A DNA stretch of 64,000 nt from Narcine bancroftii (Eukaryota). A program made the position numbers and the translations under genes. Numbering within the stretch: the stretch's first letter is position 1; each line of letters begins with the position of its first letter. The stretch lies in contig NC_091471.1 in the NCBI RefSeq assembly GCF_036971445.1, forward strand, positions 992,001 to 1,056,000. Reading direction: 5' to 3'. Below the pieces are notes generated by a model. That model did no database searches, was not told the origin of the DNA, and saw only the letters and a program-made list of their open reading frames with translations. Positions 620 to 63,520 of this stretch are shown one piece after another.

Positions 620-3600
620 TTCATCTCCTCCTCCTCCCCTCGCTCCCATGACACCCTCGCCCCTGTCCATCTCCACTTCCTCCCCTCCCCATCCTACTCC
701 TCCACCCTTACCTCCTTCCACACTCCCCTCACCACCACTCCCCATCCTTCTCCTCCTACCCTCCCTCCACCCCCACCCTCCTCCTCCACCCACCACCACC
801 CCATCCTTCTCCTCCTCCTTCCCTCCCCCAACCTCCACCAACCCCCGCACTTCTCCTCCGTTTCCCCCACCTCAACAATCTCCTCCTCCTCCCCCCCATG
901 ACATCCTCACCCCTGTCCTTCTCCTCCACCCTTCCCTCCTTCCACATTCCCCTCACCACCACCCCGTCCTTCTCCTCCTCCCCATCCCCCCTCTGTCCTT
1001 CTCCTCCTCCCCCCATCCACCTCGTCCTTCTCCTCCTCCCCATCCCACCTGTCCTTCTCCTCCTCCCCATCACCCCTCTGTCCTTCTCCTCCTCCCCATC
1101 CCCCCTCGTCCTTCTCCTCCTCCCCATCCCCCCTCTGTCCTTCTCCTCCTCCCCATCCCCCCTCTGTCCTTCTCCTCCCCCTCCATCCCCTCTGTCCTAC
1201 TCCTCCTCCTCCCCATCCCCACCTTGTCCATCTCCTCCTCCTCCTCCCCCCCATGACATCCTCACCCCTGTCCTTCTCCTCCACCCTCCCCTCCTTCCAC
1301 ATTCCCCTCACCACCACCCCGTCCTTCTCCTCCTCCCCTTCCCCCACTACACCCCCGTCCTTCTTCTCCGCCCCTCCCCCTCTGTCCACCCCTCACCCTG
1401 TCCTACTCCTCCTCCCCATCCCCCCTCTGTCCTTCTCCTCCTCCCCCCATCCCCCTCTGTCCTACTCCTCCTCCCCATCCCCCTCGTCCTACTCCCCATC
1501 CCCCCCTGTCCTACTCCTCCTCCCCATCCCCCCCTGTCCTACTCCCCATCCCGCCCTGTCCTACTCCTCCTCCCCATCCCCCCTCTGTCCTTCTCCTCCT
1601 CCCCCATCTCCCTCGTCCTTCTCCTCCTCCCCCCATCCCCCCTCTGTCCTACTCCTCCTCCCCATCCCCCCCTCTGTCCTTCTCCTCCCCCCATCCCCCT
1701 CGTCCTTCTCCTCCTCCCCATCCCCCCTGTCCTACTCCTCCCCCCATCCCCCCTCGTCCTTCTCCTCCTCCCCATCCCCCCTCTGTCCTTCTCCTCCTCC
1801 CATCCCCCCTCTGTCCTTCTCCTCCTTCCCATCCCCCCTCTGTCCTTCTCCATCCCCTCTGTCCTTCTCCTCCTCCCCCATCCCCCCTCGTCCTTCTCCT
1901 CCTCCCCATCCCCCCTCTGTCCTTCTCCTCCTCCCCATCCCCCCTCTGTCCTTCTCCTCCTCCCCATCCCCCCTCTGTCCTTCTCCTCCCCCTCCATCCC
2001 CTCTCTGTCCTTCTCCTCCTCCCCCCATCCCCCCTCGTCCTTCTCCTCCTCTCCATCCCCCCTCTGTCCTTCTCCTCCTCCCCATCCCCCCTCTGTCCTT
2101 CTCCTCCCCCTCCATCCCCTCTCTGTCCTTCTCCTCCTCCCCCCATCCCCCCTCGTCCTTCTCCTCCTCCCCATCCCCCCTCTGTCCTTCTCCTCCTCCC
2201 CATCCCCCCTCTGTCCTTCTCCTCCTCCCCATCCCCCCTCTGTCCTTCTCCTCCTCCCCCACATCCCCCCTCATCCTTCTCCTCCTCCCCATCCCCCTCT
2301 GTCCTACTGCTCCTCCACATCCCCCCTCTGTCCTTCTCCTCCTCCTCCCCATCCCCCCTCTGTCCTTCTCCTCCTCCGCATCCCCCCTCTGTCCTTCTCC
2401 TCCTCCCCATCCCCCCTCTGTCCTTCTCCTCCTCCCCATCCCCCCTCTGTCCTTCTCCTCCTCCCCATCCCCCCTCTGTCCTTCTCCTCCCCCTCCATCC
2501 CCTCTCTGTCCTTCTCCTCCTCCCCCCATCCCCCCTCGTCCTTCTCCTCCTCCCCATCCCCCCTCTGTCCTTCTCCTGCTCCCCATCCCCCCTCTGTCCT
2601 TCTCCTCCTCCCCATCCCCCTCTGTCCTTCTCCTCCCCCTCCATCCCCTCTCTGTCCTTCTCCTCCTCCCCCCATCCCCCCTCGTCCTTCTCCTCCTCCC
2701 CATCCCCCCTCTGTCCTTCTCCTCCTCCCCATCCCCCCTCTGTCCTTCTCCTCCTTCCCATCCCCCCTCTGTCCTTCTCCATCCCCTCTGTCCTTCTCCT
2801 CCTCCCCCCATCCCCCCTCGTCCTTCTCCTCCTCCCCATCCCCCCTCTGTCCTTCTCCTCCTCCCCATCCCCCCTCTGTCCTTCTCCTCCTCCCCATCCC
2901 CCCTCTGTCCTTCTCCTCCCCCTCCATCCCCTCTCTGTCCTTCTCCTCCTCCCCCATCCCCCCTCGTCCTTCTCCTCCTCTCCATCCCCCCTCTGTCCTT
3001 CTCCTCCTCCCCATCCCCCCTCTGTCCTTCTCCTCCCCCTCCATCCCCTCTCTGTCCTTCTCCTCCTCCCCCCATCCCCCCTCGTCCTTCTCCTCCTCCC
3101 CATCCCCCCTCTGTCCTTCTCCTCCTCCCCATCCCCCCTCTGTCCTTCTCCTCCTCCCCATCCCCCTCTGTCCTACTGCTCCTCCACATCCCCCCTCTGT
3201 CCTTCTCCTCCTCCTCCCCATCCCCCCTCTGTCCTTCTCCTCCTCCCCATCCCCCCTCTGTCCTTCTCCTCCTCCCCATCCCCCCTCTGTCCTTCTCCTC
3301 CTCCCCCACATCCCCCCTCATCCTTCTCCTCCTCCCCATCCCCCTCTGTCCTACTGCTCCTCCACATCCCCCCTCTGTCCTTCTCCTCCTCCTCCCCATC
3401 CCCCCTCTGTCCTTCTCCTCCTCCCCATCCCCCCTCTGTCCTTCTCCTCCTCCCCATCCCCCCTCTGTCCTTCTCCTCCTCCCCATCCCCCCTCTGTCCT
3501 TCTCCTCCCCCTCCATCCCCTCTCTGTCCTTCTCCTCTTCCCCCCATCCCCCCTCGTCCTTCTCCTCCTCCCCCCATCCCCCCTCTGTCCTTCTCCTCCT

Positions 3601-3900
3601 CCCCATCCCCCCTCTGTCCTTCTCCTCCTCCCCATCCCCCCTCTGTCCTTCTCCTCCCCCTCCATCCCCTCTCTGTCTTCTCCTCTTCCCCATCCCCCCT
3701 CGTCCTTCTCCTCTTCCCCCCATCCCCCCTCTGTCCTTCTCCTCCTCCCCATCCCCCCTCTGTCCTTCTCCTCCTCCCCATCCCCCCTCTGTCCTTCTCC
3801 TCCTCCCCCCATCCCCTCTCTGTCCTTCTCCTCCTCCCCATCCCCCCTCTGTCCTTCTCCTCCCCCCCATCCCCCCCCGTCCTTCTCCTCCCCTCCCCCC
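620..3900. repeat. Polypyrimidine minisatellite A, unit ~29 bp (CCCCATCCCCCCTCTGTCCTTCTCCTCCT)
   Basis: Directly visible tandem array. It is degenerate at 620-950 and regular from about 1400 to 3880. Confidence 0.97.
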
Positions 3901-4009
3901 ACCACCACCCCCACCCACCGCTCTCCCTCCCTCCCACGACCCCCTCCTTTGCCCTCCGACTGCTGTCCCTCCCATCCGTGCTGCCCGTGGGGGGGGGGGG
4001 GGGGGGCAC

Positions 4010-4420
4010 ATACTGGCCAGGCCGTTGTCAGGGACCCTTCTCCCGGATCCCCCCACGTGTGACAGGAGGCGCCGTCCCGTCCCTTCCCGGCCCGACTGTG
4101 AGGAACGAAGCCCCGGCCGGTCCCGCTGCCGCTCACCCCCCGGCAGCACCGGCTCCAACGATGGCCAGGCCCGTGCCCCGGACACTCGGGAAACCCTCGC
4201 CCGCCCGGGACGAGTCTCACCTCTGGCCGCGGCCTCCTCCGTGGACCGGCCCGTTGCTGAGGAAACGACGCTGACGGACCTGGTGACGTCAACGCGCCCA
4301 TGTCTGAACCGAGCCCGGACGTCACGCGACGGGGCGGCCGCAGCCCGGGGAGGAGGGGCAAAAGAAGCTGTCAATCAGAGAAGGGCCACGGCCGGGCAGT
4401 CCCTGCGCATGCGCACATGG
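4010..4420 (-). promoter_or_regulatory. CpG-island promoter-like module, copy 1
   Basis: CpG-dense. It contains a perfect NRF1 palindrome TGCGCATGCGCA (4404-4415), a PBX/PREP decamer TGATTGACAG on the minus strand (4368-4377) and a CRE TGACGTCA (4284-4291). It is an inverted homologue of 9945-10160. Strand is inferred. Confidence 0.6.
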
Positions 4421-4740
4421 GCTTCCCGGGGCTTTTCTGGATGGAATCGGGCCCTGAGAAAGAGAAGGGGAACGGGGTGGGGGGACAAGGGGAGGGGAAC
4501 AAGACGACGTTTCCATCGGACGATGAACTCAGTCGGGTGACGGGACAGAGACGAGGTTCCCATCATCTGATGAACTCAGCCAGGTGACAATACAGAGATG
4601 AGACGAGACGTGATGAATTGTCGATATAGGTTAAAAAAAACTCTGCTGTGTTCCAGGCAATGGAAGTTGAGGTTGTGCTGGGTTGAATGGCAGCATCTTC
4701 CCCAGATTCACACGTGGAAAATTTATGCTCATCCACATGA

Positions 4741-5190
4741 CAGTGAAATGGTGCAGAGGTGGTGGAAATGTCGAGGTGAAAGCGATCAGTGGACAAGTGA
4801 AACCTGGCCTTGTGTCTGCAAATATGATCGGTCAGGGGCAGAGTTTAGATCAGAAATGGAGAGGGGACTCAGAGAGGGGAGGGCCTGATGCAGCTGGGTT
4901 GTAGAATTAAATAAAAGGGGGTTTCGAATGTCTGGAGCAGAACTTGGCCTTTGAGATGTATTGTCCTAAATGACAGAACTTCAGACTTTTTCTGAGACCA
5001 GCTTTGTTCAAAGACAATCGCTCAATGTCTTTAATGGCGATGACCGTTACCCAGAAATCTCTTCGGCCAAAAAAGCACCCTATCAACATGAAAGCAGGGA
5101 GCGCGCAGGCGTACAAGAAGTGACGTCATGGCACGTGGGTTACGCAAAAGCTCTCGGCCCTTGTCAGGGACCGAAGGTGATTCAGCGCTT
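4741..5190 (+). repeat. Segmental duplicate (ZNF upstream cassette, copy 1)
   Basis: Collinear with 42444-42596, 46877-46951 and 47553-47740, for example AAACCTGGCCTTGTGTCTGCAAATATGATC and GACCGTTACCCAGAAATCTCTTCGGCCAA. Confidence 0.92.
5101..5137 (+). promoter_or_regulatory. Candidate proximal promoter of the ZNF gene (NRF1-like, CRE, E-box)
   Basis: GCGCAGGCG, TGACGTCA (5121-5128) and CACGTG (5132-5137). The paralogue at 47661-47695 has TGCGCAGGCGCA, GGAAGTG and CACGTG. Confidence 0.5.
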
Positions 5191-5192
5191 GG

Positions 5193-5855
5193 TCCGGAAC
5201 GGAGCGTCCCGGAGCGGAGGATTCCGGAACGGAGCGCTGGATCCCGGAGCGGAGTATTAAGGAACGGAGCACTGAGTCCCGGAACGGAGTATTAAGGAAC
5301 TGAGCACTGGGTCCCGGAGCGGAGTATCCCGGAATGGAGCGTCCCGGAGCGGAGGATTCCGGAATGGAACGCTGGGTCCTGGAGCGGAGTATTAAGGAAT
5401 GGAGCGCTGGATCCCAGAGCGGAGTATTAAGGAACGGAGCGCTGGGTCCAGGAGCGGAATATTAAAGAACGGAGCGCTGGGTCCCAGAGCGGAGTATCCC
5501 AGAGCGGAGCATCCCGGAACGGAACACTGGGTTCCGGAGCGGAGGATTCTGCAACTGAGCGCTGGGTCCCGGAGCGTAGTTTCCCGGAACGGAGCGCCGG
5601 GTCCCAGAGCGGAGGATTCCGGAACGGAACGGTGGGTCCCAGAGCAGAGTATCCCAGAACAGAACGCTGGGTCTTGGAGCGGAGTATCCCGGAACAGAAC
5701 GCTGGGTCTTGGAGCGGAGTATCCTGGATTGGAGCGCTGGATCCCGGAGCGGAGTATTCAGGAACGGAGTGCTGGGTCCCCGAGCGGAGTATCCCTGAAC
5801 GGAGCTGCAGTTCCCGTAACAGTCCCGGAACAGAGCGGAGTGCTGGTTCCCGGAT
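5193..5855. repeat. 35-bp minisatellite B (GGAACGGAGCGCTGGGTCCCGGAGCGGAGTATTAA)
   Basis: Units start at 5261, 5296, 5361, 5396, 5431 and 5466 (35-bp period), with a few shorter units. Confidence 0.95.
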
Positions 5856-6041: not shown

Positions 6042-6797
6042 ATGAACCCACTTCAGTGCTCCGATTGTGGCAAGAACTTTAAATGGTTGAGCCAGTTAAC
6101 GATACACCGGCGGGTCCACACTGGGGAGAGACCCTTCACCTGCCCAGAGTGTGGCAAGGGATTCACCAAGTCGTCCCATCTGCTGTCCCACCAGCGGGTT
6201 CACACTGGGGAGAGGCCCTTCATCTGCCCTGAGTGCGGGAAGGGGTTCACCCACACATCCGACCTACGGAGGCACCAGCGGGTCCACACCGGGGAGAGAC
6301 CATTCACCTGCCACAAGTGTGAGAAGGGTTTTACGAACAGGTCGAACCTTGAGATACACCAGCGGATGCACACCGGGGAGAGGCCCTGCACCTGCCCTGA
6401 GTGCGGCAAGGGCTTCACCCAGACCTCCAACCTGCTGAGACACCAGTGGGTCCACACCGGGGAGAAGCCGTTTGTCTGCCCTGATTGTGGCAAGGGCTTC
6501 ACCCAGTCGTCTGACCTGCAGACCCATCAGCGAGACCATACCGGGGAAAAGCCTTTCATCTGCCCCGAGTGCAAGAAGGCCTTCACCAACAGGTCCAGCC
6601 TTGAGAAACACCGGCGGGTTCACACCGGTGAGAGACCGTTCATCTGCCCTGAGTGCGGCAAGGGGTTCACCCAGTCCTCCAACTTGAGGACCCACCAGCG
6701 GGTCCACACTGGAGAGAGGCCCTTCAGCTGCTTCAGCTGTGGCAAGAACTTCACCCAGTCAGCCAGCCTGTTGAAGCACCAGCGGGTCCACAAATGA
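6042..6797 (+). CDS. C2H2 zinc-finger protein with 9 tandem fingers (possibly the terminal coding exon)
   Basis: Nine intact C-x2-C-x12-H-x3-H fingers with TGE(R/K)P linkers. ATG is at 6042, there is an in-frame upstream stop at 6003, and a pyrimidine tract plus CAG (possible splice acceptor) ends at 6039. No KRAB, SCAN or BTB domain is visible. Confidence 0.93.
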   Translation: MNPLQCSDCGKNFKWLSQLTIHRRVHTGERPFTCPECGKGFTKSSHLLSHQRVHTGERPFICPECGKGFTHTSDLRRHQRVHTGERPFTCHKCEKGFTNRSNLEIHQRMHTGERPCTCPECGKGFTQTSNLLRHQWVHTGEKPFVCPDCGKGFTQSSDLQTHQRDHTGEKPFICPECKKAFTNRSSLEKHRRVHTGERPFICPECGKGFTQSSNLRTHQRVHTGERPFSCFSCGKNFTQSASLLKHQRVHK

Positions 6798-8876: not shown

Positions 8877-9905
8877 CCCCTTCACCCCTTTATCCCCCCC
8901 TTGACCCCCTCTGCCCCTTTATTCCCCCTTGACCCCATCCCCTTCACCCCTTTATCCCCCTTGACCCCCTCTGCCCCTTTATTCCCCCTTGACCCCATCC
9001 GCTTCACCCCCTCCCCTTCACCCCCTTTGACCCCCTCCCCTTTATCCCCCCTTGACCCCCTCTGCCCCTTTACTCCCCCTTGACCCCATCCCCTTCACCC
9101 CTTTATCCCCCTTGACCCCCTCCCCTTCACCCCCTTTGACCCCCTCCCCTTTATCCCCCCTTGACGCCCTCTGCCCCTTTATTCCCCCTTGACCCCCTCC
9201 CCTTCACCCCCTTTGACTCCCTCTGCCCCTTTATTCCCCCTTGACCCCCTCCCCTTCACCCCTTTATCCCCCCTTGACCCCCTCCCCTTCACCCCTTTAT
9301 CCCCCCTTGACCCCCTCCCCTTGACGCCCTCCCCTTCACCCCCTTTGACCCCCTCCCCTTTATCCCCCCTTGACCCCCTCTGCCCCTTTACTCCCCCTTG
9401 ACCCCCATCCCCTTCACCCCTTTATCCCCCTTGACCCCCTCGACCCCTTTATCCCCCTTGACCCCCTCCCCTTCACCCCCCTTTGACCCCCTCTATACCC
9501 CCTTGACGCCCTCTGCCCCTTTATTCCCCCTTGACCCCCTCCCCTTCACCCCCTTTGACTCCCTCTGCCCCTTTATTCCCCCTTGAACCACCTCCAACCC
9601 CTTTATCCCCCCTTGACCCCCCTCCCCTTCACCCCTTTATCCCCCCTTGACCCCCTCCCCTTCACCCCTTTATCCCCCCTTGACCCCCTCCCCTTCACCC
9701 CTTTATCCCCCCCTTGACCCCCTCCCCTTCACCCCCCTTGACCCCCTCCCCTTCACCCCCCTTGACCCCCTCCCCCTTGACCCCCTCCCCTTGACCCCCT
9801 CCCCTTCACCCCCTCCCCTTCACCCCTCCCCTTCACACCCCCTTGACCCCCTCCCTTCACCCCCCCTTAACCCCCTCCCCTTACCCCCCTTTATTCCCCC
9901 TTGAC
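8877..9905. repeat. Polypyrimidine minisatellite C, unit ~32 bp (TTGACCCCCTCCCCTTCACCCCTTTATCCCCC) made of ~10-11-bp subunits
   Basis: Directly visible tandem array. Confidence 0.95.
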
Positions 9906-9944
9906 CTCACTCTCCTTCGCCCCTTTATCCACCTTGCCCCTGCT

Positions 9945-10130
9945 CCTCTGATTGACAGCTCCCTCCGCCCCACCTCCCGTGCAACGGCCGCCCCATCACG
10001 TGATGGCCGGAGCCGGCTCAGGCGTGAACGCGTTGACGTCACAGGCCCATGAGATCGTGGTCAGCGTCAACAACGGCCTGGTCCCACGGGGCGGGGCGAG
10101 CGGCATCGATGCCCGCGGGGACTTCGTCCT
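9945..10130 (+). promoter_or_regulatory. CpG-rich promoter-like module, copy 2, wedged between two satellites
   Basis: TGATTGACAG (9949-9958), GC box (9965-9970), 14-bp palindrome CCATCACGTGATGG (9993-10006, E-box) and CRE TGACGTCA (10034-10041). It is a reverse-complement homologue of 4100-4385. Confidence 0.6.
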
Positions 10131-13100
10131 CCTCCCATCCGGCCCAGGGCAACTCCTGTCCCCCTCCCATCCGGCCCAGGCAACCCCTGACCCCCTCCCA
10201 TCCGGCCCCGGGCAGCCGCTATCCCCCCTCCCATCCGGCCCGGGCAGCCCCTGTCCCCCTCCCATCCGGCCCGGGCAGCCCCTGTCCCCCCTCCCATCCG
10301 GCCCGGGCAGCCGCTATCCCCTCCCATCCGGCCCGGGCAGCCGCTATCCCCCTCCCATCCGGCCCGGGCAGCTGCTATCCCCCTCCCCCCCCCCATCCGG
10401 CCCGGGCAGCCCCTGTCCCCTCCCATCGGGCCCGGGCAGCCCCTGTACCCCTCCCATCCGGCCCGGGCAGCCCCTGACCCCCTCCCATCCGGCCCGGGCA
10501 GCCCCTGTCCCCCTCCCCTCGGTCCCGGGCAGCCCCTGTCCCCCTCCCATCCGGGCCGGGCAGCCCCTGTCCCCCCTCCCATCAGGCCCGGGCAGCCCCT
10601 GGTCCCCTCCCATCCCAGTCCGGGCAGCCCCTGTCCCCCCACCCATCCGGCCCGGGCAGCCCCTGTCCCCCTCCCCTCGGTCCGGGCAGCCCCGGTCCTC
10701 CTCCCATCCGGCCCAGGCAGCCCTTGACCCCCTATCCGGCCCAGGCAAGCCCCTGTCCCCTCCCATCCGGCCCGGGCAGCCCTGTCCCCCTCCCATCCGG
10801 CCCGGGCAGCCCCTGTCACCCTCCCATCCAGTCCGGGCAGCCCCTGTCCCCCTCCGATCCGGCCCCAGGCAACCCCTGACCCCCTATCCGGCCCAGGCAG
10901 CCCCTGTCCCCTCCCATCCGGCCCAGGCAGCCCTTGACACACTATCCGGCCCCAGTCAGCCCCTGTCCCATCCCATCCGGCCCGGGCAGCCCCCTGTCCC
11001 CCTCCCATCCGGCCCGGGCAGCCCCTGTCCCCCTCCCATCCGGTCCGGGCAGCCCCTGTCCCCCTCCGATCCGGCCCAGGCAACCCCTGACCCCCCTCCC
11101 ATCCGGCCCGGGCAGCCGCTATCCCCCTCCCATCCGGCCCCGGGCAGCCCCTGTCCCCCTCCCATCCGGCCCGGGCAGCCGCTATCCCCCTCCCATCCGG
11201 CCCGGGCAACCCCTGTCCCCCTCCCATCGGGCCCGGGCAGCCCCCTGTACCCCTCCCATCCGGCCCGGGCAGCCCCTGACCCCCTCCCATCCGGCCCGGG
11301 CAGCCCCTGTCCCCCTCCCCTCGGTCCGGGCAGCCCCTGTCCCCCTCCCATCCGGCCCAGGCAGCCCCTGTCCCCCTCCCATCCGGCCCAGGCAGCCCTT
11401 GACCCCCTATCCAGCCCAGGCAGCCCCTGTCCCCTCCCATCCAGCCCGGGCAGCCCCTGTCCCCCTCCCCATCCGGTCCCCGGGCAGCCCCCTGTCCCCC
11501 TCCCATCCGGTCCGGGCAGCCCCTGTCCCCCTCCGATCCGGCCCAGGCAACTCCTGTCCCCCTCCCATCCGGCCCAGGCAACCCCTGACCCCCTCCCATC
11601 CGGCCCGGGCAGCCGCTATCACCCCTCCCATCCGGCCCGGTCAGCCCCTGTCCCCCTCCCATCTGGCCCGGGCAGCCCCTGTCCCCCTCCCATCCGGCCC
11701 AGGCAACCCCTGACCCCCTCCCATCCGGCCCGGGCAGCCGCTATCCTCCTCCCATCCGGCCCGGGCAGCCCCTGTCCTCCTCCCATCCGCCCAGGCAGCC
11801 CCTGTCCCCCTCCCATCCGGGCCCAGGCAGCCCTTGACCCCCTATCCGGCCCAGGCAGCCCCTGTCCCCTCCCATCCGGCCCGGGCAGGCCCCCTGTCCC
11901 TCTCCCATCCGGCCCGGGCAGCCCCTGTCCCCCTCCCATCGGGCCCGGGCAGCCCCTGTACCCCTCCCATCCGGCCGGGCAGCCCCTGACCCCCTCCCAT
12001 CCGGCCCGGGCAGCCCCTGTCCCCCTCCCCTCGGTCCGGGCAGCCCCTGTCCCCCTCCCATCCGGGCCGGGCAGCCCCTGTCCCCCTCCCATCAGGCCCG
12101 GGCAGCCCCTGTCCCCCTCCCATCCAGTCCGGGCAGTCCCTGTCCCCCACCCATCCGGCCCCGGGCAGCCCCTGTCCCCCTCCCCTCGGTCCGGGCAGCC
12201 CCTGTCCCCCTGGGCCGGGCAGCCCCTGTCCCCCTCCCATCAGGCCCTGGCAGCCCCTGTCCCCCTCCCATCCAGTCCGGGCAGCCCCTGTCCCCCACCC
12301 ATCCGGCCCGGGCAGCCCCTGTCCCCCTCCCCTCGGTCCGGGCAGCCCCTGTCCTCCTCCCATCCGGCCCAGGCAGCCCCTGTCCCCCTCCCATCCGGCC
12401 CAGGCAGCCCTTGACCCCCTATCCGGCCCAGGCAGCCCCTGTCCCCTCCCATCCGGCCCGGGCAGCCCCTGTCCCCCTCCCATCCGGCCCGGGCAGCCCC
12501 TGTCCCCCTCCGATCCGGCCCAGGCAAACACCTGACCCCCTCCCATCCGGCCCGGCAGCCGCTATCCCCCTCCCATCCGGCCCGGGCAGCCCCTGTCCCC
12601 CTCCCATACGGCCCGGGCAGCCGCTATCCCCCTCCCATCCGGCCCGGGCAGCCCCTATCCCCCTCCCATCGGGCCCGGGCAGCCCCTGTACCCCTCCCAT
12701 CCGGCCCGGGCAGCCCCTGTCCCCCTCCCATCCGGCCCGGGCAGCCCCTGACCCCCTCCCATCCGGCCCGGGCAGCCCCTGTCCCCCTCCCCTCGGTCCG
12801 GGCAGCCCCTGTCCCCCTCCCATCCGGGCCGGGCAGCCCCTGTCCCCCTCCCATCAGGCCCTGGCAGCCCCTGTCCCCCTCCCATCCAATCCGGGCAGCC
12901 CCTGTCCCCCACCCATCCGGCCCGGGCAGCCCCTGTCCCCCTCCCCTCGGTCCGGGCAGCCCCTGTCCTCCTCCCATCCGGCCCAGGCAGCCCCTGTCCC
13001 CCCTCCCATCCGGCCCAGGCAGCCCTTGACCCCCTATCCGGCCCAGGCAGCCCCTGTCCCCTCCCATCCGGCCCGGGCAGCCCCTGTCCCCCTCCCATCC

Positions 13101-42150: not shown

Positions 42151-42600
42151 ACACCTTGACCCCCCCCCCCCCCCCCACTTCGGTCACACGGATGGGATGG
42201 TGCAGCAGTTGGACTGGGGAAGGCAGCGAGTGTGAGGGGAAGGGGTGGAAGGCGTGAAGGGGGAAGGGATCATGATGCGTGATGGGGAAGGTGGAGGGAG
42301 ACAGAGGAACAAGGAGAACAGAAGGAGGAAGGAAATGTGGAGGTAGGGAGGGGAGCGGCACCAAAGTCCCGCTAGCCTGACAGCAGTGTCTGAGGTCTGC
42401 ACACAAGGGGCTGACTCGTTTCTGGCCCTGAGCAGTTTGACTAAGTGAAGTGGTGCAGAGGTGGTGGAAATGTAGAGGTGAAAGTGACCAGTGGATGTGT
42501 GAAACCTGGCCTTGTGTCTGCAAATATGATCAGTCAGGGGCAGAGTTGAGATCAGAAATGGAGAGGGGACAAATGATGCTTCTGGGTTGTAGAATCCAAA

Positions 42601-43255
42601 TATATAACCATATAACTGTTTACAGCGCGGAAACAGGCCATGTCATCCTTTCGAGTCCGCACCGGTTCACTAGATCAACTCCACTAGCTCAACCTTCCCG
42701 CTGTCCGCCCATAACCCTCCAACCCCCTCACATCCATGTACACATCCAACCTTCTCTTAAATGACAGAAGGGACCCTGACGCAACTATCTCTTTTGGAAG
42801 ATCATTCCATTCTGCCATCACTCGCTGAGTGAAAAAGCCACCTCTAACATTTCTCCTAAAGTTTTGCCCCCTTACCCTTAACTCATTCCCTCTTGTTCCA
42901 ACCTCCCCTGCCCTCAGGGGAAAGAGTCTACTCGTGTCTAGTCTATCTATTCCCTTCATAATTTTAAATACCTCTATCAAATCCCTTCTCAGTCATCTAT
43001 GTTCCAATGAATAAAGTCCCAGTCTCCTTAATCCCTTCCTGTAATCCAGATGCTGTAAGCCAGGCAACATCCTTGTAAACCTTCTCTGCACCTCTCCACC
43101 TTATGTATATCCTTTCTATAATTTGGAGACCAGAACTGAGCACAATACTCCAAACCTGGCCTCACCAATGCCTTAAACAGCCACAGCATCACTTCCCAGC
43201 TCCTATACTCTATACTATGGTTTATGAAGGCCAGCATACCATATGCCTTCTTAAC
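42601..43255 (-). mobile_element. CR1 LINE 3' fragment
   Basis: ORFs 43028-43276 and 42684-42980 (LVRPGLEYCAQFWSP, IEVFKIMKG, FFTQRV) and a TATGGT-type microsatellite tail at about 42601-42615. Confidence 0.92.
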
Positions 43256-44215
43256 CATATATAACCATAAAACCATTTACAGCACAGAATAGGCCGGTTC
43301 GGCCCTACTAGTCCATGCCGTAGCAAATCCCCACCCTCCTAGTCCCACTGACCAGCACCCGGTCCATACCCCTCCAGTCCCCTCCTATCCATGTAACAAT
43401 CCAGTCTTTCCTTAAATGTAACCAATGATCCCGCCTCGACCACGTCTGCCGGAAGCTCATTCCACATCCCCACCACCCTTTGCGTAAAGAAATTTCCCCT
43501 CATGTTCCCCTTATAATTTTCCCCCTTCAATCTTAAACCATGTCCTCTAGTTTGAATCTCCCCCTCTTAATTGAAAAAGCCTATCCACATTTACTCTGTC
43601 TGTCCCTTTTAAAATCTTAAACACCTCTATCAAGTCCCCTCTCAATTTTCTACGCTCCAGAGAAAAAAGCCCCAGTCTGCACAACCTTTCCCTGTAACTC
43701 AGACCCTGAAATCCTGTCAACATTCTCATGAACCTTCTCTGCACTCTCTCTATTTTGTTTATATCTTTCCTATAATTTGGTGACCAAAACTGTACACAGT
43801 ACTCCAAATTTGGCCTCACCAATGCCTTGTACAATTTCATCATAACCTCCCTACTCTTGAATTCAATACTCCGATTTATGAAGGCCAACATTCCAAATGC
43901 CTTCTTCACCACACCATCTACCTGAGTATCAGCCTTGAGGGTACTATTTACCATAACTCCTAAATCCCTTTGTTGCTCTGCACTCCTCAATTGTCTTCCA
44001 TTCAATGTATATGACCTATTTAAATTTGCCTTTTCAAAATGTGGCACCTCACATTTATCTGTATTAAATTCCATCAGCCATTTCTCAGCCCACACCTCCA
44101 GCCTTCCTAAATCACCTTTTCATCTATGGTAATCTACCTCACTGTCCACAACACCACCAATATTTGTGTCATCCGCAAACTTGCTTATCCAATTCTCCAC
44201 CCCTACATCCAGATC
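43256..44215 (-). mobile_element. CR1 LINE 3' fragment
   Basis: ORFs 43547-44095 and 43339-43530, FADDT motif near 44170, and its own 3' tail at about 43256-43275. Confidence 0.92.
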
Positions 44216-44507
44216 TATCCTTGGAAGGATAGATTAGAGGGCACATCCACGGAGGCTATTTGGGTGGAACTGAGGAGTAGGAAAGGAGAGGTTACACTTG
44301 TAGGGCTGTATTATAGACCACCCGGAGGGGACCGAGACCTAGAGGAGCAAATCTGTAGGGAGATGGTAGATATTTGTGATAAGCACAGGGTTGTAATTAT
44401 GGGAGATTTTAATTTTCCACATATAGATTGGGAAACACATTCTGTGAAAGGACTGGATGGGTTAGAGTTTGTGAAATGTGTGCAAGATAGTTTTTTACAA
44501 CAATATG
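44216..44507 (+). mobile_element. CR1 ORF2 APE-endonuclease fragment (opposite orientation)
   Basis: Translation EAIWVEL...LYYRPP...IMGDFNFPHIDW...FLQQYV is typical of the CR1 endonuclease domain. Confidence 0.88.
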
Positions 44508-46345
44508 TAACATAACATAACAATTACAGCACGAAAACAGGCCATTAGGCCCTTCTAGTTCGCACCGAACCAAACACCCCTTTCTAGTCCCACCTCCCTG
44601 CACAATGCCCATAACCCTCCATCTTCTTCTCATCCATATACCTGTCCAACCTTTTCTTAAATAATACAATTGACTCCGCCGCCACTATTTCTCCCGGAAG
44701 ATCATTCCACACGGCTACCACTCTCTGAGTAAAGAAATTCCCCTCATGTTACCTCTAAACCTCTGCCCCTTAATTCTTAACTCATGTCCTCTTGTTTTAA
44801 TCTTTCCTCCTCTTAACGGAAATAGTCTATCCACATCCATTCTGTCTATCCCTTTCATAATCTTAAATACTTCTATCAAATCCCCTCTCAACCTTCTACG
44901 CTCCAAAGAATAAAGACCTAATCTGTCCAATCTCTCCCTATACTCTAGATGCTTAAACCCAGGTAACATTCTGGTAAACCTTCTCTGCACTCTCTCCACT
45001 CTGTTTATATCCTTCCTATAATTAGGCGACCAGAACTGCACACAGAACTCCAAATTAGGCCGCACCAACGTCTTATACAATCTCAACATCACCTCCCAAC
45101 TCCTATATTCCATGCAATGATTGATAAAGGCCAGCATACTAAAAGCCTTCTTCACCACCCTATTCACGTGAGTTTCTACCTTCAGGGAACGATGTACCGT
45201 TACTCCTAAATCTTTCTGCTCTTCTGTATTCCTCAATGCTCTCCCATTTACCACATATGTCCTATTCTGATTCTTCTTACCAAAATGAAGCACCTCACAC
45301 TTATCAGCATTAAATTCCATCTGCCATTTTTCAGCCCACTTTTCTAAGCAGCCCAAATCCCTCTGCAATCCTTGAAAACCTTCTTCATTATCCACTATTC
45401 CACCTATCTTAGTATCGTCTGCATATTTACTAATCCAATTCACCACCCCATCATCTAGATAATGTATATAACGAACAACAATGGGCCCAATACAGATCCT
45501 TGAGGCACACCACTGGTCACCGGCCTCCAACCTGACAGACAATTTTCCACTACCACTCTCTGGCCTCTCCCTTTCAGCCAATGTTCAATCCATTTGACTA
45601 TCTTAAAATTTATACCTAAAGACTGCACCTTCCTAACTAACCTTCCATGTGGTACCTTATCGAAGGCCTTACTGAAGTCCATATAGACAACATCCACTGT
45701 GCTACCCTCATCCACATTCCTAGTCACCTCTTCAAAATATTCAATCAGATTGGTCAAACATGACCTTTCTCCCACAAATCCATGTTGAGTGCTCCTGATC
45801 AGACCCTGTCTATCCAGATGTTTATAAGTACTATCTCTAAGAATTTTCTCCATTAATTTACCTACCACAGACGTCAAACTTACAGGCCGATAGTTGCCAG
45901 GCTTCCTCCTTGAACCCTTTTTAAATAACGAAACCACATGCGCAATGCGCCAATCCTCCGGCACTATCCCCATATCTAATGACATTTGGAAAATTACCGC
46001 CAGAGCCTCTGCTATTTCCTCCTTCACTTCTCTCAATGTCCTGGGGAAGATCCCGTCTGGTCCCGGAGACTTATCCACCTTTATATTCTTCAAAAGCCTT
46101 AAAACTACACCTTTTGTAATCTCTATATTCCCCATATTTACCCAATTTGCTTTTTTTATCTCACATCTCCCAATATCCTTCTCCTTAGTGAATACCGAAG
46201 AAAAGAAACTGTTCAATATCTCCCCCATTTCTCTAGGCTCCACACACAGTTTTCCGCTCTGATTTTCAAAGGGACCAATTTTGTCTCTAGCTTTCCTCTT
46301 ACCATTAACATATTGGTAGAACTCTTTTGGATTAGTTTTCACCCT
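44508..46345 (-). mobile_element. CR1 LINE, ~1.8-kb 3' portion with nearly intact RT
   Basis: KSPGPDG, NYRPVSLTS, DFSKAFDKV, GVPQGSVLGP and YADD motifs, with a frameshift near 45460 and a (TGTTA)n tail at about 44508-44523. Confidence 0.95.
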
Positions 46346-46876
46346 GCACTTGTCTACATTGAATTCCATCTGCCATCTTTCAGCCCACTCTTCCAAACAA
46401 GCCAAATCCTTCTGTAACCCAAGAAAACCTTCCTCACAATCTACCACTACCCCTATTTTCGTATCATCCGCATATTTGCTTACCCAGTTAACCTCACCCT
46501 CCTCTAAATCATAAATATAAATGATAAACAACAGGGGTCCCAGTACTGATTCCTGAGGCACCCCGCTTGTCACAGGCTTCCAACCTGATATACAGTTGTC
46601 CACCATGATTCTCTGCTGTCTATCTTCCAGCCACCTCTGAACCCATGTCACAATCTCTCTACTAATACCTAATGACTGAACCTTCCTTATTAACCTTCCA
46701 TGCAGAACCTTATCAAAAGCCTTACTAAAATCCAAATAGATCACATCCACCGCTTTACCTTCATCCACCTTTTATGTCACTTTCTCAAAAAACTCAACAA
46801 GGTACGTCAAACATGACTTTCCTTTTGCAAACCCATGCTGGGTGCCCCTAATCAACCCCTGTCTATCCAGATATCC
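46346..46876 (-). mobile_element. CR1 RT internal fragment
   Basis: Second set of DFSKAFDKV...YADDTKIG...EFNVDKC motifs, fused in frame to the neighbouring copy. Confidence 0.88.
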
Positions 46877-47032
46877 GGTTTCAAATGTCTGGATCAGAAC
46901 TTGGCCTTTGAGATGTATTGTCCTAAATGACAGAACTTCAGACTTTTTCTGTATATTCAGTGCGTTACATTGTTAATGCTTTGAATTTTACTCGGAGAAC
47001 TTGGACACAACAATCTAACCCGAAACAAAACA

Positions 47033-47255: not shown

Positions 47256-47981
47256 CTCTTCTCTGCTGGAGAAACTTAGTGGGTCGAGCAGCATCGGTGG
47301 AAGAGGAAAAGAATCCCTAACATTGTAGGCAGCGCCTCCCGACATTCCCCTCCTCACGTTGATAGAAAATGTTCTGGTATGTTCGGAGGAGGCGCTGGGA
47401 AATAATCCTGGAATATTTATTCCTCAATCAGCAGGAAAACAGTGACCGTTGTCGTCATTGTTGATGAGAACTTTCTGTGCATTGATTGGCGGCCTGTTTC
47501 ATCCATCTTACCAGTCACAGTAGGGGAGATTGATTTGGGAGACATGGGCATGAAACCAGCTTTGTTTAAAGACAATCGCTCAATGTCTTTAATGGTGATG
47601 ACCGTTACCCAGAAATCTCTTCGGCCAATAAAGCACCCTATCAACTTGTGAAAGAAGGGAGTGCGCAGGCGCACGGGAAGTGACTGCACGTGACCTGCAC
47701 TAAAACTCCCAGTGCTTTTCAGATTGAAGGCGGTTCAGCACTGGGTTCCAGAGTCTGGGAGCAGAGTGCAGCAATGTGTCCCGGAATGGAGGGCTCGCTT
47801 AGTTTTGGGGCTTGCAATGCCTGGCTAGAGATCGCTTCTCTCTGGGGGGGGGGGTCTCAGCCCTAGGCCCAGCCTTGGTGTTGATTTAACCCACTGCCCA
47901 GCTCTCTGGAAGCCTCCATCAGGCTGAGCAAAGTGCGTGGGACAGGACTGCATTGATTTATCCCTTGGGGATAAATATCAT

Positions 47982-48197
47982 GGGGTTTACCTGTTCCTCC
48001 CACTTGCTGAGACACCATCGGGTCCATACAGGGGAGAGACCCTTCGTCGCCTCGAGTGTGGAAAGTGATTCGCTCGGTCCTCCCACCTCTTGAGACACAA
48101 GCAGGCCCACATCGGTGAGAGGCTGTTCACCTGCTCCGATTGCAGGAAGGAGTTCACCCAGTTGAACAGCCTGGTGAATCACCAGTGAGTCCACACA
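47982..48197 (+). pseudogene. C2H2 zinc-finger pseudogene, paralogue of 6042-6797
   Basis: GFTCSSHLLRHHRVHTGERPF / [45 protein letters not shown], with a frameshift and two stops. It lies at the position equivalent to the intact gene. Confidence 0.9.
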
Positions 48198-49176: not shown

Positions 49177-49584
49177 TTCCCAAAACAAGGCTAGCATTTA
49201 TCAGTGAAACCAGAATATAATGAGATATTTACAAATAGTGTGGCCTCTCAGGTTTTTTTGAACACGAGAAGACCTTCTTATTGGAGCAGGTGGAGGCTGT
49301 GCAGGAGTGATGACCTTGGAAGCTGGTGGTGTTGGTATCATTCCCTGATCTATAGTGTGAGATTGCAAGACTTCTGGACTCGCTCCAGAATCACCAGCGT
49401 GAGACTGGGGGATCTCAGCATGGCCATTTGAATGCTTACTAGGGGGTCACAGGTCGGAGACATGGGTCAGTTAGAACCGTATCCCTTTGAGGAGGTATGT
49501 TGGGTGGTGCATCCAACCTCTCAGGATCACTCTGAGTGGGGGCATGCAAAAAGGGTGAACCATGTGGGGCTAGATCTCTTAGGG

Positions 49585-50400
49585 CACACAGAACTCAAAA
49601 CGGTCAACCAGTTTACCTACCTCGGCTGCACCATTTCATCTGATGCAAGGATCGACAACGAGATAGACAACAGACTCACTAAGGCAAATAGCGCCTTTGG
49701 AAGACTACACAAAAGAGTCTGGAAAAACAACCACCTGAAGAAGCACACAAAGATCAGTGTGTACAGAGCCGTTGTCATACCCACGCTTCTGTTCGGCTCC
49801 GAATCATGGGTCCTCTACCGGCATCACCTACGGCTCCTAGAACGCTTCCATGTGGGCTGTCTCCGCTTCATCTTCAACATTCATTGGAGTGACTTCATCA
49901 CCAACATCGAAGTACTCGAGCTGGCAGAGTCCGCAAGCATCGGATCCACGCTGCTGAAGATCCAACTGCGCTGGGTGGGTCACGTCTCCAGAATGGAGGA
50001 CCATCGCCTTCCCAAGATCGTGTTATATGGTGAGCTCTCTACTGGCCACTGAGACAGGTGCACCAAAGAAGAGGTACAAGGACTGCTTAAAGAAATCTCT
50101 TGGTGCCTGCCACATTGACCACCGCCAGTGGGCTGATCTCGCCTCAAACCATGCATCTTGGCGCCTCACAGTTCAGCGAGCAGCAACCTCCTTTGAAGAA
50201 GACCGCAGAGCCCACCTCACTGACAAAAGACAAAGGAGGAAAAACCCAACACCCAACCCCAACCAACCAATTTTCCCCTGCAACCACTGCAACCGTGTCT
50301 GCCTGTCCCGCATCGGACTTGTCAATCACCAACGAACCTGCAGCAGACATGGACCTACCCCTCCATAAATCTTCATCCGCGAAGCCAAGCCAAATAAGAT
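49585..50400 (+). mobile_element. 5'-truncated RTE-clade LINE inserted in the Gypsy integrase
   Basis: FTYLG, LRWVGHVSRM and C-terminal Cys/His motif. TTAGGG is duplicated at 49579-49584 and 50401-50406, and removing the insert restores Gypsy DGSTDTVPLRDLAP. Confidence 0.93.
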
Positions 50401-52191
50401 TTAGGGGTACTGTGTCCGTGCTCCCATCTGGGAATTTAACGTAGGCATAATTGGGATTAGCGTGCAGCAGTTGAACTGGCTGGACTAGAGGGTTCATTTT
50501 GTGCTTCCGAGCATGTCTCTTCAGCAGCTCGGTTCCAGGTTCAGATAGACAGGCTGGCTAGTCCGCCCCAGTTCTTGATTTCTTAGAAAAAGTAAACATA
50601 CGTTCATGAGGTGTTTGATTTGTTTCTGTACATAATAGGGACTGAATAGAATGTAGCACCTCCTGCCACCAAGTAACGGGATAACCATGTGTCTTTAAAG
50701 CGAGGTTAACAGTCTTCCAGACTGTAGCGTTAGCCCTTTCGACCTGCCCATTGCCCTGTGGGTTGTAGCTCATGGTGCGGCTGGTGGCAATCCCCTTGTG
50801 TAACAGAGCCCGGCGTAGCTCTGCACTCATGAATGCTGAGCCTCTGTCTGTATGAATGTAGCTGGGAATACTAAAGATTTGGTCAAGTGCCTTAATGACA
50901 GATGTCGTTGAGACGTCAGGGGTGGGTATCACGAAAGGAAACCTTGAATATTTGTCAATTACGTTAAGGAAAAACACAGTTTTGTTGTTAGAAGGTAACG
51001 GCTCTTTAAAATCTAAATTAATCCTTTGAAAAGGTCTGTTTGCTTTGATGAGAGTGGCCCCTGGAGATTTAAAATACTGTGGCTTGCATTCTGTGCAAAC
51101 AGGACAGCTTCAAGTCAGTTTTCTGACTTCTTCCAGAGAGTAAGGAAGGTTATTGGCCCTTTATGTAGTGGAGGAATCTTGTGACTCCTGGGTGGCACAG
51201 TCTGCTATGGATCTCCTTTTGTCCTTCAAACTGGGCACTGGCACCAGCTCATGACAATGTGTTAGAGGGATCATTTAACTTGCCAGGTTTGTAACTGATC
51301 TCATAATTGTAAGTTGAGAGTTCTATTCGCCAGCATGCCATATTATCATTTTTAATTTTACCTTTGTGTTTAATGTTGAACATGTAGGCTACAGATTTCT
51401 GATCATTGATCAGGGTGAATTTTCTACCAGCTAGAAAGTGTCTCCAGTAGCGTACAGCTTCAGTGATAGCCTGGGCTTCTTTTTCAATGGCAGGATGTTT
51501 AAGTTCAGACCCATGTAAATGCCACAGGTCTGCCCTTCTGGTTAAAGGTTCCTGCTAAAGCACAATCTGAGGCATCGGTTTCCACTTGGAACGGGACATC
51601 TTCGTCAATGGACAAGAGTGCAGCTTTGGCAATATCAGCTTTAATTCTCTCAAAAGCTTTCAGGGCTGCGGGAGAGAGAGGGAAAGATTCTGTGTCAAAC
51701 AGGGGTCGTGCCTTCGTAGCGTAGTCACGTACCCATTTGTAGTAGTAGGAAAAGAATCCCATACACTGCTTAAGGGCTTTTGTGGAGTCTGGGGGTGGCA
51801 ACCTCTTAAGGGCAGCCATTCTTTTAGGATCGGGGTGGATTTTGCCCTCACGAACAATGTAGCCCAGAATGGGTAGTTCTGTTGCATTGAAAACACATTT
51901 ACCCTCGTTAAACGTAAGATTGAGTTCTTTGGCCGTTGCCAGAAATTTTTTAGGTTTTAATCATGCTCGGACTGGGTCTTCCTGCAGATAGTGACATTAT
52001 CCAGATAGAGGAACGTACCCTGTAACTCATACGTCCTAATGATATTATTCATTTCCCTCTGAAACATGGTCATACTGTTAGTGACTCCAAAAGGTCCCCT
52101 CCTAAACTGGTATAGCCTCCCATCAGCCTTGAACACCGTATAGGGTCATTCGCTTTTTAAAAGGGGGATTTGGTGATAGGGTGCCTTAAGG

Positions 52192-52468
52192 ACATTAGAG
52201 GGAATTTCTTCACACAGAGAGTAGCGGGGTGTGGATCAAGCTTCCAACTGAAGTTAATGCAGGCTCAATTTTCACATTTAAGAAGAATTTGGACAGGTAC
52301 ATGAAGAGGAGGGGTATGAAGGGCTATGGAGTGGGTGCAGGTCAATGGGACTAGGCAGAAAAACAGTTTGGCACAGACTAGAAAGGCCAAAGGGGCCTGT
52401 TTCTAGTGGAGTTGTTTAAATGAACCGGTACGGACTTGAAGGGCCGACATGGCCTGGTTATATGGTTA
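52192..52468 (+). mobile_element. Short CR1 3' fragment(s) inserted in the Gypsy RT
   Basis: TTCTTCACACAGAGAGT...GGACTAGGCAG and a TGGTTATATGGTTA tail. TAAGG is duplicated at 52187-52191 and 52469-52473. Confidence 0.85.
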
Positions 52469-54009
52469 TAAGGTCGATAGTCTAGTACACTCTATATTGT
52501 GCTGTCTGATTAACCATTTCATTGATGCGGGACAGGGGGTAAGCATCCAAGTTAGTGTAACAGTTAATTGTCTGGCTGTAGTCAATAGCCAGTCGTTTCT
52601 TAGTGTGATTTTTCACCATTACCACCTGGGCTCGCCACAGACTCCTGCTGAGTTCAATCACCCCCTCTTTAAGTAGTCTCCAAGTCTCAGCCTTAATAAA
52701 CTCACGGTCCTCTTTGCTGTAAGAACGACTCTTAGAGGCAATCAGTCGACACTTGGGAGATAGATTACTGAACAGGAGGAAGCTTTGATCTTTAGTGTGG
52801 ACAGACCACAGTAACCAGTGTGGGGGATGGTAAATGTGGGTAGCTGCCCATCAAAGTTTAACACTACACTTTTCATCTGAGATTGAATATCGAACCCCAG
52901 TAACATTGGAGCACAGAGATCAGACATTACGAAAAGTCAAACATCAGCGAGACAATGTCCCTGCAAGTTCAGAGTAACTTTATACTTATCCCATATGATC
53001 TTTTTAAGTTCACTACAAGCCATCGATATCCCTTGGTTCTCAGGATACCTCTTCAAATTTAAGGCTTCAGCAACTTTTTCATGAATCTAACTGTCAGTGC
53101 TGCCAGAGTCTATTAAGCAATCGACAGTCTCACCATTCACCTCCCCCTTCATAGTCGACTGTTCCAGTCCGTAACAACAGTCAATTGAGCTATCACAGGG
53201 GAACCTTGTGTTGATCTCACCTCGCCGTCACTTGAAGTCAATTCAGCCAGCTCGTCTGAAGATTCCTCCCTTCACGGTCGTCGTCCATTCCAGTGGCTCT
53301 AGGATGAATTTTCTTGGTTCTTTTCTTCTTATCAGTGGGAATATTTTTCGCCCTGAATGCTTTAGCGAAGTGGCCATATTTCCCACAGTGGCTGCAAGGA
53401 GTGAATCAAGCTGGATGCTTCTGTCTGGGTTGCCAGGTCTTATTACAGAAGTAACACTTGTCAGGTGTTTCATCCCTTCATCCCCTTCAGGGTTCCAGCA
53501 CTCATGGGTGTTTTCAGTTTCCAGAATTTCACTGGATCACATAGCACTTCTCAGTTTTGGCTAGTGTGACTGCTTGGCCAAAGGTCAGAGGCTCTGTTTT
53601 TAATAGCCTCTGACGGATGTAACTGTAGTAAATGCCATTGACAAAAGCATCTAGCTTTAAAGCATTGCGGTGTTGTTTCTCAGTGACTGCCTCGACATTG
53701 CATTCATTTGCCAATGAGCCAGTGCATAGGCAGCATCACTTTCCCCAGATTTCTGGCGTCTAGTTAGCAATTGGTGCCTGGCAAATACCACATTCTGTGG
53801 CACCGCAGAGTAAGCGGTCAGTTCCCAGGCTATAGCCAGGGACGCAGCTCCTCAAGTTACAGAAAAAGGGATCTCACCCAGTAAGGAGTTCAGGTGGCCC
53901 CACTGTATCCTCTCATCAACCACGTTGTTCTGAGCCATGTAGTAGTCGAAACAAATAATCCAGTAGTTGAAGATTTCTCTGGCCCATGGGGCAACTGGTT
54001 AGTGTCTCC

Positions 54010-56188: not shown

Positions 56189-57253
56189 AGGCGCCTGCAA
56201 GCTCACACCAAGACACAAGAGAAACTTGTCCGTGAACTACTCTTTGCAGATGATGCCGCTTTAGTTGCCCATTCAGAGCCAGCTCTTCAGCGCTTGACGT
56301 CCTGCTTTGCGGAAACTGCCAAAATGTTTGGCCTGGAAGTCAGCCTGAAGAAAACTGAGGTCCTCCATCAGCCAGCTCCCCACCATGACTACCAGCCCCC
56401 CCACATCTCCATCGGGCACACAAAACTCAAAACGGTCAACCAGTTTACCTATCTCGGCTGCACCATTTCATCAGATGCAAGGATCGACAATGAGATAGAC
56501 AACAGACTCGCCAAGGCAAATAGCGCCTTTGGAAGACTACACAAAAGAGTCTGGAAAAACAACCAACTGAAAAACCTCACAAAGATAAGCGTATACAGAG
56601 CCGTTGTCATACCCACACTCCTGTTCGGCTCCGAATCATGGGTCCTCTACCGGCACCACCTACGGCTCCTAGAACGCTTCCACCAGCGTTGTCTCCGCTC
56701 CATCCTCAACATCCATTGGAGCGCTCACACCCCTAACGTCGAGGTACTCGAGATGGCAGAGGTCGACAGCATCGAGTCCACGCTGCTGAAGATCCAGCTG
56801 CGCTGGATGGGTCACGTCTCCAGAATGGAGGACCATCGCCTTCCCAAGATCGTATTATATGGCGAGCTCTCCACTGGCCACCGTGACAGAGGTGCACCAA
56901 AGAAAAGGTACAAGGACTGCCTAAAGAAATCTCTTGGTGCCTGCCACATTGACCACCGCCAGTGGGCTGATAACGCCTCAAACCGTGCATCTTGGCGCCT
57001 CACAGTTTGGCGGGCAGCAGCCTCCTTTGAAGAAGACCGCAGAGCCCACCTCACTGACAAAAGGCAAAGGAGGAAAAACCCAACACCCAACCCCAACCAA
57101 CCAATTTTCCCTTGCAACCGCTGCAATCGTGTCTGCCTGTCCCGCATCGGACTGGTCAGCCACAAACGAGCCTGCAGCTGACGTGGACTTTTTACCCCCT
57201 CCATAAATCTTCGTCCGCGAAGCCAAGCCAAAGAAGAAGAAAGAAAAGAAGAA
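56189..57253 (+). mobile_element. Young 5'-truncated RTE-clade LINE with uninterrupted ORF end
   Basis: Open frame from FADD to the stop at 57181, a (GAA)n-like tail, and TATATATGTAT flanking both sides (56176-56186 and 57256-57266). Confidence 0.96.
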
Positions 57254-63139: not shown

Positions 63140-63520
63140 TCATTTGAGCTGTGTGGGAAGGGGTTCTCGTGGCAATCTGGCCTGCAGACACACCAGCGGG
63201 TTCACACTGGAGATAAACCATTCACCTGCTCACTCTGTGGGAAAGGGTTCTCTCAGCCATCCAGCCTGCAGGCACACCAGCGGGTTCATGTTGGAGAGAG
63301 ACCATTCACCTGCTCCCTGTGTTGGATTAGATTCACTCATTCCACCTACCTGCGGAAGCACCAGCGGGTTCACACCAGGGAGAGACCGTTCTCATCCACC
63401 AAGTGCGGAAAGGGATTCACCGATTCCTCCTCTCTGCAGGCCCACTGTTGATTTTCTATCAGGGAGGGACCATTGACCTTCTCCCTATGTGGGGAGGAGT
63501 TCACGGAGCCCTAGGGTCTG
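63140..63520 (+). pseudogene. C2H2 zinc-finger pseudogene/remnant (about 4-5 fingers, 2 intact)
   Basis: [61 protein letters not shown] and [18 protein letters not shown]. Cys residues are lost, there is a premature stop, and the 5' end abuts the Gypsy sequence. Confidence 0.85.

Follow-up and report, generated by a model that had tools for sequence, protein, structure and literature searches.

A giant locus-specific minisatellite in a zinc-finger cassette of Narcine bancroftii and the likely origin of its 31-bp unit

The analysis of 64,000 nucleotides of the Narcine bancroftii genome (NC_091471.1, positions 992,001 to 1,056,000; referred to here as the window) revealed that array D is a locus-specific giant minisatellite in the first-intron region of one copy, copy 2, of a zinc-finger gene cassette. 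The array very probably arose in place. Its likely history, to which a probability of about 0.65 is assigned, is that a deletion in the cassette intron fused two short conserved segments into a 31-bp unit, which was then amplified by tandem duplication. Judged by sequence comparison, the monomer is thus probably a chimera of the 5' part of an upstream block, L, and a downstream block, S2. The features of the window on which this reading rests, together with the other repeats and zinc-finger remains found in it, are collected in Table 1.

Table 1. Features of the window (positions counted from its first letter)
Feature	Positions	Strand	Remarks
Tandem array A	966-3891		29-bp unit, purine-rich on minus strand
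Right anchor of copy 1	3925-4008	-	C-run and conserved downstream motif
Positional homologue of the array interval in copy 1	4009-4238	-	230 bp; splice-donor-like site of exon 1 at 4216-4222; S2 absent, C-run starts instead
Flagged stretch of the copy 1 cassette	4061-4116	-	block L (4087-4116), purine-rich spacer, block M (4061-4072)
Putative promoter/exon-1-like part of cassette copy 1	4239-4383	-	role suggested by sequence comparison
Tandem array B	5194-5805		35-bp unit, about 600 bp
Intact tandem C2H2 zinc-finger ORF	6042-6797	+	251 aa, 9 zf-C2H2 stretches; head-to-head with copy 1
Tandem array C	8877-9930		
Left anchor of array D: promoter/exon-1-like part of cassette copy 2	9943-10089	+	matches reverse complement of 4239-4383, 75%
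Left junction of array D	10090-10128	+	about 95 bp present in copy 1, splice donor among them, are absent; rest colinear with block L into first unit
Array D	10126-42160	+	31-bp unit x 1043, head-to-tail; majority unit as at 10225-10255
Right junction and anchor of array D	42157-42244	+	C-run, then the motif following S2 in the family; matches reverse complement of 3925-4008, 77%
Decayed C2H2 zinc-finger exon downstream of copy 2	47979-48196	+	stops, frame change
Third decayed C2H2 finger stretch	63150-63445	+	

Array D and its surroundings

The units of array D differ from the majority unit at a mean of 2.4 positions and fall into 264 distinct strings. The array fits the minisatellite range of unit lengths, roughly 10-100 bp, and is confined to one locus; a classical multi-locus or centromeric satellite was rejected as its class, since all 32 kb lie at one place, about 1 Mb into a 376-Mb contig. 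When the 3.33-Gb assembly was searched with a 27-mer and a 21-mer of the monomer, all exact matches (111/111 and 77/77, respectively) lay inside the array, so that with these two patterns no exact monomer donor exists outside array D in the assembly as it stands. Non-overlapping G-quadruplex-type motifs number 527 on the minus strand and 0 on the plus strand; these motifs may contribute to the instability of the array. Array D is most likely neutral. No known RNA family reached the Rfam gathering score between positions 3850 and 10400 (0 matches). The literature search, outside which most subscription papers lay, found nothing on minisatellites of zinc-finger CpG-island introns or on this locus or family, and nothing on topic about cartilaginous-fish satellites.

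Array A starts just beyond the right anchor of copy 1, at a place where copy 2 (42245-42360) has a short purine-rich stretch. Array B presents a case reciprocal to that of array D, as the paralogous region at about 47740-47790 holds a short unexpanded stretch and both flanks align. Look-alikes of array C, which are pyrimidine-rich arrays directly upstream of the cassettes L027, L002, L010 and L025, suggest a second seed common to the cassette copies. Repeats are dense at 42600-63100, with three related copies (49582-50399, 54152-55184 and 56189-57240; 89-94%) and one pair (51393-53139 and 60204-61645; 81%), and these presumably resemble pieces of the retroelements LINE and LTR element.

The cassette family

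The search with copy 1 gave at least 51 matches from 40 candidates scored out of 118, and that with copy 2 at least 47 matches from 40 candidates scored out of 42. The resulting set comprises 43 oriented loci, namely L001-L030 (L001 being copy 1) and 13 loci from the copy 2 search, copy 2 and six entries that repeated earlier loci being excluded. The stretch at 4061-4116, which an earlier note had described as a single-copy seed of the array, turned out to belong to a zinc-finger promoter/first-intron cassette that has at least 43 copies. The parts common to the 43 cassettes are the promoter-like part, a donor-like GGTGAG and the conserved intron blocks L, M and N, S2 being the 3' part of N. 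Blocks L, M and N pass the score cut in 26, 28 and 19 of the 43 loci, respectively, while the donor-like GGTGAG is present in 33/43 paralogues and absent from copy 2. A C2H2 finger lies within 3.1-3.5 kb of the cassette at 18/43 loci, in a head-to-head arrangement at 17 of these 18. We infer from the sequence that the promoter-like part of copy 1 serves a 419-aa ORF with 14 fingers, located 1.4-2.6 kb left of the window (L071).

The promoter tree (44 rows) is star-like, with 5 of its 40 inner branches well supported by a bootstrap that had not settled; it does not pair copies 1 and 2 and does not resolve copy 1 as the sister of the array locus. In similarity to the array locus, copy 1 comes second among the 43 on the left-flank score and sixth on the right. 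Copy 1 is a diverged cousin within a star-like family, not the ancestor of the array D locus, and it keeps block L without S2.

Variation in arrangement is also seen within the family. Relative to the downstream-homologous segment (3925-4994 as against 42157-46951), the cassette faces away in copy 1 and towards the segment in copy 2, L063 and L060, and because of this difference in facing the family is considered to have two module arrangements. The near-identical cassettes L010 and L014 (G000:C11, 256.896-256.897 Mb) stand head-to-head at a distance of about 450 bp. A sub-family that duplicated recently, and whose promoters are near-identical, consists of L006, L008, L009, L015, L016, L023, L024 and L028 (G000:C1, 166.7-167.6 Mb, and C348); its members have spacer arrays of differing unit and length and a common upstream minisatellite of 50-51 bp in about 5-16 copies, which makes the sub-family good material for timing.

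Junctions, composition of the unit and alternative origins

Both flanks of array D match reversed copy 1, so that 32,067 bp in copy 2 occupy the place of 230 bp in copy 1, and both are also colinear with other paralogues of the family. When scored against family profiles, the phase of the array relative to its flank is the best of the 31 rotations at the left as well as the right junction, a result that does not amount to a clean 1 in 961, as adjacent phases are not independent and the boundaries were set with knowledge of the data. For the junction profiles, 6 or 7 near-identical copies and a few poorly placed rows were dropped, leaving 19, 20 and 14 rows. At the left junction the majority unit has a score of 8.6 bits, a value reached by 6/1500 promoter 30-mers, 0/940 windows of other C-rich arrays and 0/1500 shuffled units, and 8.8 bits at the right junction, which is reached by 0/1500, 3/940 and 1/1500 of them, respectively. 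The actual edge units score weakly as compared to the majority unit at the same junctions, with 3.9 bits on the left (reached by 13 promoter 30-mers, no other-array window and 6 shuffles) and 2.2 bits on the right (15 promoter 30-mers, 49/940 other-array windows and 15 shuffles).

Colinear flanks, junctions in phase with the family profile, the lack of a donor and the lack of a convincing target-site duplication together support the origin of array D in place, as the earlier note had proposed. A target-site duplication or a foreign donor locus, either of which that note had regarded as contrary evidence, was not convincingly found in the 3.33-Gb assembly. The unexpanded state of the locus is read here from paralogues, not orthologues. 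Contigs of two studies (X3 and X6) cross the left junction with 0 substitutions and share four 1-base indels against the assembly, at 10043, 10083, 10117 and 10147. One of these falls within the first unit, and the form in which that unit had been quoted therefore probably contains one extra G; the sharing of the four indels by both studies also implies that indel variants among the units of array D may partly represent assembly error. Run X6 bears a different organism label, yet it matches X3 at the left junction.

Raw likeness between the monomer and copy 1 was not found to be informative. Both strings that the earlier note had aligned are present where it placed them; the minus-strand one begins two bases in from 4116. 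Aligned with gaps, they reach a score of 32.5, which none of 5000 dinucleotide shuffles attained (mean 0, highest 25.5); the ends of the strings were, however, hand-picked and include 9-12 bases of flank outside array D. When the monomer alone was aligned, likeness beyond chance was absent, both to 4061-4116 (p 0.06) and to the whole 230-bp interval (p 0.38). Antisense controls across the 43 paralogues score as high as sense in the unanchored monomer comparison, and for this reason raw likeness was rejected as evidence. It is the anchored junctions and the position, rather than monomer likeness, that carry the evidence for the origin of array D.

The composition of the unit was read against the conserved blocks of the family. 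Columns 1-19 of the unit follow block L, with 13/19 matching copy 1. Columns 20-31 match block M of copy 1 at 9/12 positions and block S2 at 12/12 positions in L004, L007 and L065 (3/43 paralogues, as against 0/43 in antisense); the last 12 bases of the unit are found within 1 mismatch in 6/43 paralogues in sense and 1/43 in antisense. The right flank of the array continues with the motif that comes after S2 in the family, and copy 1 is without S2. Among whole-unit models, for which boundaries and blocks were chosen after inspection of the data, the combination of L and S2 scores 21.1 bits, that of L and M 10.9 bits and a downstream-only model 8.5 bits. The L and S2 combination is the best model for 1041/1042 units; the first unit, which was scored apart, slightly prefers L and M (12.1 bits, as compared to 10.6 bits for L and S2). 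A short repeat of 3-4 bp, GTC(C), opens the part taken from block L and closes S2 in the family profile, and so brackets the proposed unit. The span from L to S2 is 100-159 bp in paralogues without an array between the blocks. As the cassette itself is weakly repetitive and GC-rich, several routes to the unit of array D exist.

By the mechanism proposed here, a deletion of roughly 70-130 bp would have joined L to S2 and created the 31-bp unit, and the first duplication would have come from slippage, or from unequal exchange, between the short GTCC repeats. Further duplications, recently of 1.8-6 kb each, would have raised the number to about 1040 units. The gene of copy 2, in which about 95 bp with the splice donor are missing and the finger exon is broken, had likely lost its function; relaxed constraint is plausible at this copy, and growth of the array may have been tolerated for that reason.

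The idea that the seed is preserved in the paralogue, where it can be read directly, holds for one half of the unit. Copy 1 keeps the 5' half (the 13/19 match given above), and the 3' half fits S2, which copy 1 has lost. The expectation that edge monomers should be closer to the copy 1 seed is borne out by the first unit, which ranks 19/1043 when raw sequence is compared, and fails for the last unit, which ranks 1039 in column-aligned scoring. A general gradient from edge to interior is not seen either, the first and last 10 and 20 units having means of 11.9-13.9 as against 13.2 inside. With its 31 columns and recurrent changes, the unit is too short to support a monomer phylogeny rooted on the copy 1 seed. 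The observation made on the flagged stretch is real, and its interpretation as a seed is partly supported.

Insertion of a foreign repeat into the cassette would make ACTTCG, a 6-bp direct repeat near both ends of array D, its target-site duplication, and would reduce the likeness to the family to chance among GC-rich sequences. Array D does have look-alikes elsewhere, namely C-rich minisatellites on C24 and C27, which reach about 70% identity although unrelated to it, and a 77-bp match on C16. However, ACTTCG is not convincing as a target-site duplication, given that two 20-bp cassette windows picked at random have a 6-mer in common in 10% of cases and that its right copy lies beyond a C-run which copy 1, L004 and L030 also possess; no 7-mer is common to both ends. 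The arrays on C24 and C27 were ruled out as donors, as their units differ (28, 26-36 and 13 bp). With no exact donor in the assembly, and with an L-to-S2 deletion at the same site and a chance match of phase at both ends required in addition, such an insertion appears very improbable. The model of the earlier note, in which the purine spacer was lost and the unit derives from L and M only, with later drift, so that copy 1 would show the whole seed, is an unlikely one. The high rank of the first unit against the copy 1 seed and the highly variable length of the spacer among paralogues agree with it, as does the first unit in being one of 3/1043 with a 3' end nearer to M than to S2. The M-like base is carried by only 3 units, however, one of them far from the edge; the model scores 10.9 bits against 21.1 and is preferred by 1/1042 units. 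Under it, reaching the right flank would take a second deletion, and three substitutions would have to converge on S2.

Both kinds of unit may also have coexisted in an early short array formed in place, an L and M unit being kept in first position and an L and S2 or downstream-only unit sweeping the rest. The near tie of the two models in the first unit is in line with this, and a rare base in column 23, which is common to the first two units and the last one and is carried by 19/1043 units, suggests that the edges retain an older state. On the other hand, the assembly has 1-base indel errors, so that one or two bases of edge units carry little weight, and the downstream-only model is the worst of those scored; the probability of such a mixed origin is put low. 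Independently of the seed question, array D could have arisen in place and have been inflated to 32 kb by the assembly, near-identical multi-kb blocks having been written twice. Blocks of which the closest are separated by 1 substitution in 1810 bp, and the 1-base indels of the assembly against the contigs of two studies, would fit such an error. The ratio of majority-unit to flank contig depth in X3 (174.4/2.99, about 58) lies near 65, the mean count of 31-mers in the array as assembled, a rough check only, as contig depths of this kind are no copy numbers; inflation is considered to have a small chance. The fusion of L to S2 in place is retained as the preferred origin of the array.

Growth of the array, parallel births and known systems

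Tandem blocks of 6.0, 5.1, 2.6 and 1.8 kb were detected within array D, with 0.06-0.39% substitutions between copies, and the near-identity of these multi-kb blocks indicates that recent growth proceeded in large steps. The sets of unit variants differ between the left and the right half of the array. Transitions at CpG columns affect 4-36% of the distinct units, as compared to a median of 2% at non-CpG columns (one of which reaches 23%), and this excess hints at germline methylation of array D. In run X6 the array-to-flank contig depth, which is again no copy number, is about 15; a value about four times below that of X3 is a weak hint of a difference in length.

Arrays have been born elsewhere in the family from other pieces of the same cassette. 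At L017 (G000:C1 near 494,216,000), 14.5 copies of a 28-bp unit derive from block L, with M and N intact behind them, and at L014 (G000:C11 near 256,897,000) an array with a 35-bp unit derives from block S2. A tandem repeat of at least 100 bp is present in the first kilobase of the cassette at 28/43 loci, as against 0/21 one-kb tiles of the window right of array D; among these 28 cassettes, many repeats are simple purine-rich tracts and several loci are near-identical. An intron-specific excess was rejected, since 24/43 upstream-kilobase controls also carry repeats, 6 of them with finger-coding periods. The longest paralogue array followed, at L073, measures 1.6 kb, and none near 32 kb was met when three paralogue regions were extended. 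These observations raise the possibility, advanced here tentatively, that the zinc-finger 5' cassette is a repeat nursery in which satellite birth has been replayed dozens of times in one genome. The paralogues might then display successive stages, from unexpanded blocks through single-block arrays of about 15 copies (L017, L014) to the chimeric array of 1043 copies.

In its basic form the event, a unit of about 30 bp that expands to 30 kb within an intron, is already known from human CACNA1C. According to the sources cited (PMC11118589; 10.1101/2025.09.15.676436), the intron-3 VNTR of this gene, TRACT, started as one 30-bp copy and reached 3-30 kb or more through successive tandem duplications of up to kilobase scale, and its single-copy seed differs from the consensus at a few bases. 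TRACT and array D are alike in intronic location, in a unit of about 30 bp and in growth in place by tandem duplication. They differ in the source of the seed, which for TRACT is one contiguous 30-mer read from orthologues (chimpanzee, gorilla) and for array D likely a fusion of two blocks by deletion, read from paralogues of one genome. TRACT, moreover, resides in a working gene with measured effects, whereas array D lies in a likely pseudogene.

Other parts of the proposed history also have precedents. The model of Haber and Louis (1998), cited through a review (PMC6947457), places the birth of a minisatellite between short flanking repeats of 5-10 bp. The proposed ancestral unit of array D would likewise be bracketed by a short direct repeat, with a first duplication followed by amplification through longer homology; its bracket, GTC/GTCC, is only 3-4 bp long, below the range of the model, and the unit would first have to be formed by a deletion. 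In Drosophila koepferae, loci with a single unit and with arrays of the CDSTR177 satellite in Galileo copies have common flanks, which was read as in-situ amplification (PMC13553610). Common flanks of single and array loci within a dispersed family are also found for array D, but the host of CDSTR177 is a transposon and its unit is intact in single-copy loci, while the host of array D is a gene cassette. Minisatellite families have also expanded from Alu, SINE B1 and MaLR copies (PMC6947457), where, as in the cassette family, several copies of one dispersed sequence yield arrays independently. The nursery considered here differs from these in being a zinc-finger promoter/intron cassette, different copies of which amplify different pieces.

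The de novo origin of a given satellite is usually hard to show (10.1101/2021.07.01.450629). For array D, dozens of paralogues in the same genome allow the ancestral state to be read, and this state suggests that deletion can create a monomer that is not copied from an existing stretch. If the fusion of L to S2 is true, a satellite monomer that never existed as one piece would be traceable base by base to a deletion. Since births of arrays from one known ancestral sequence recur within the family, the choice of seed and the growth of arrays become open to comparative study. If the nursery reading is true as well, the size of an array could be tested against the loss of gene function across the family.
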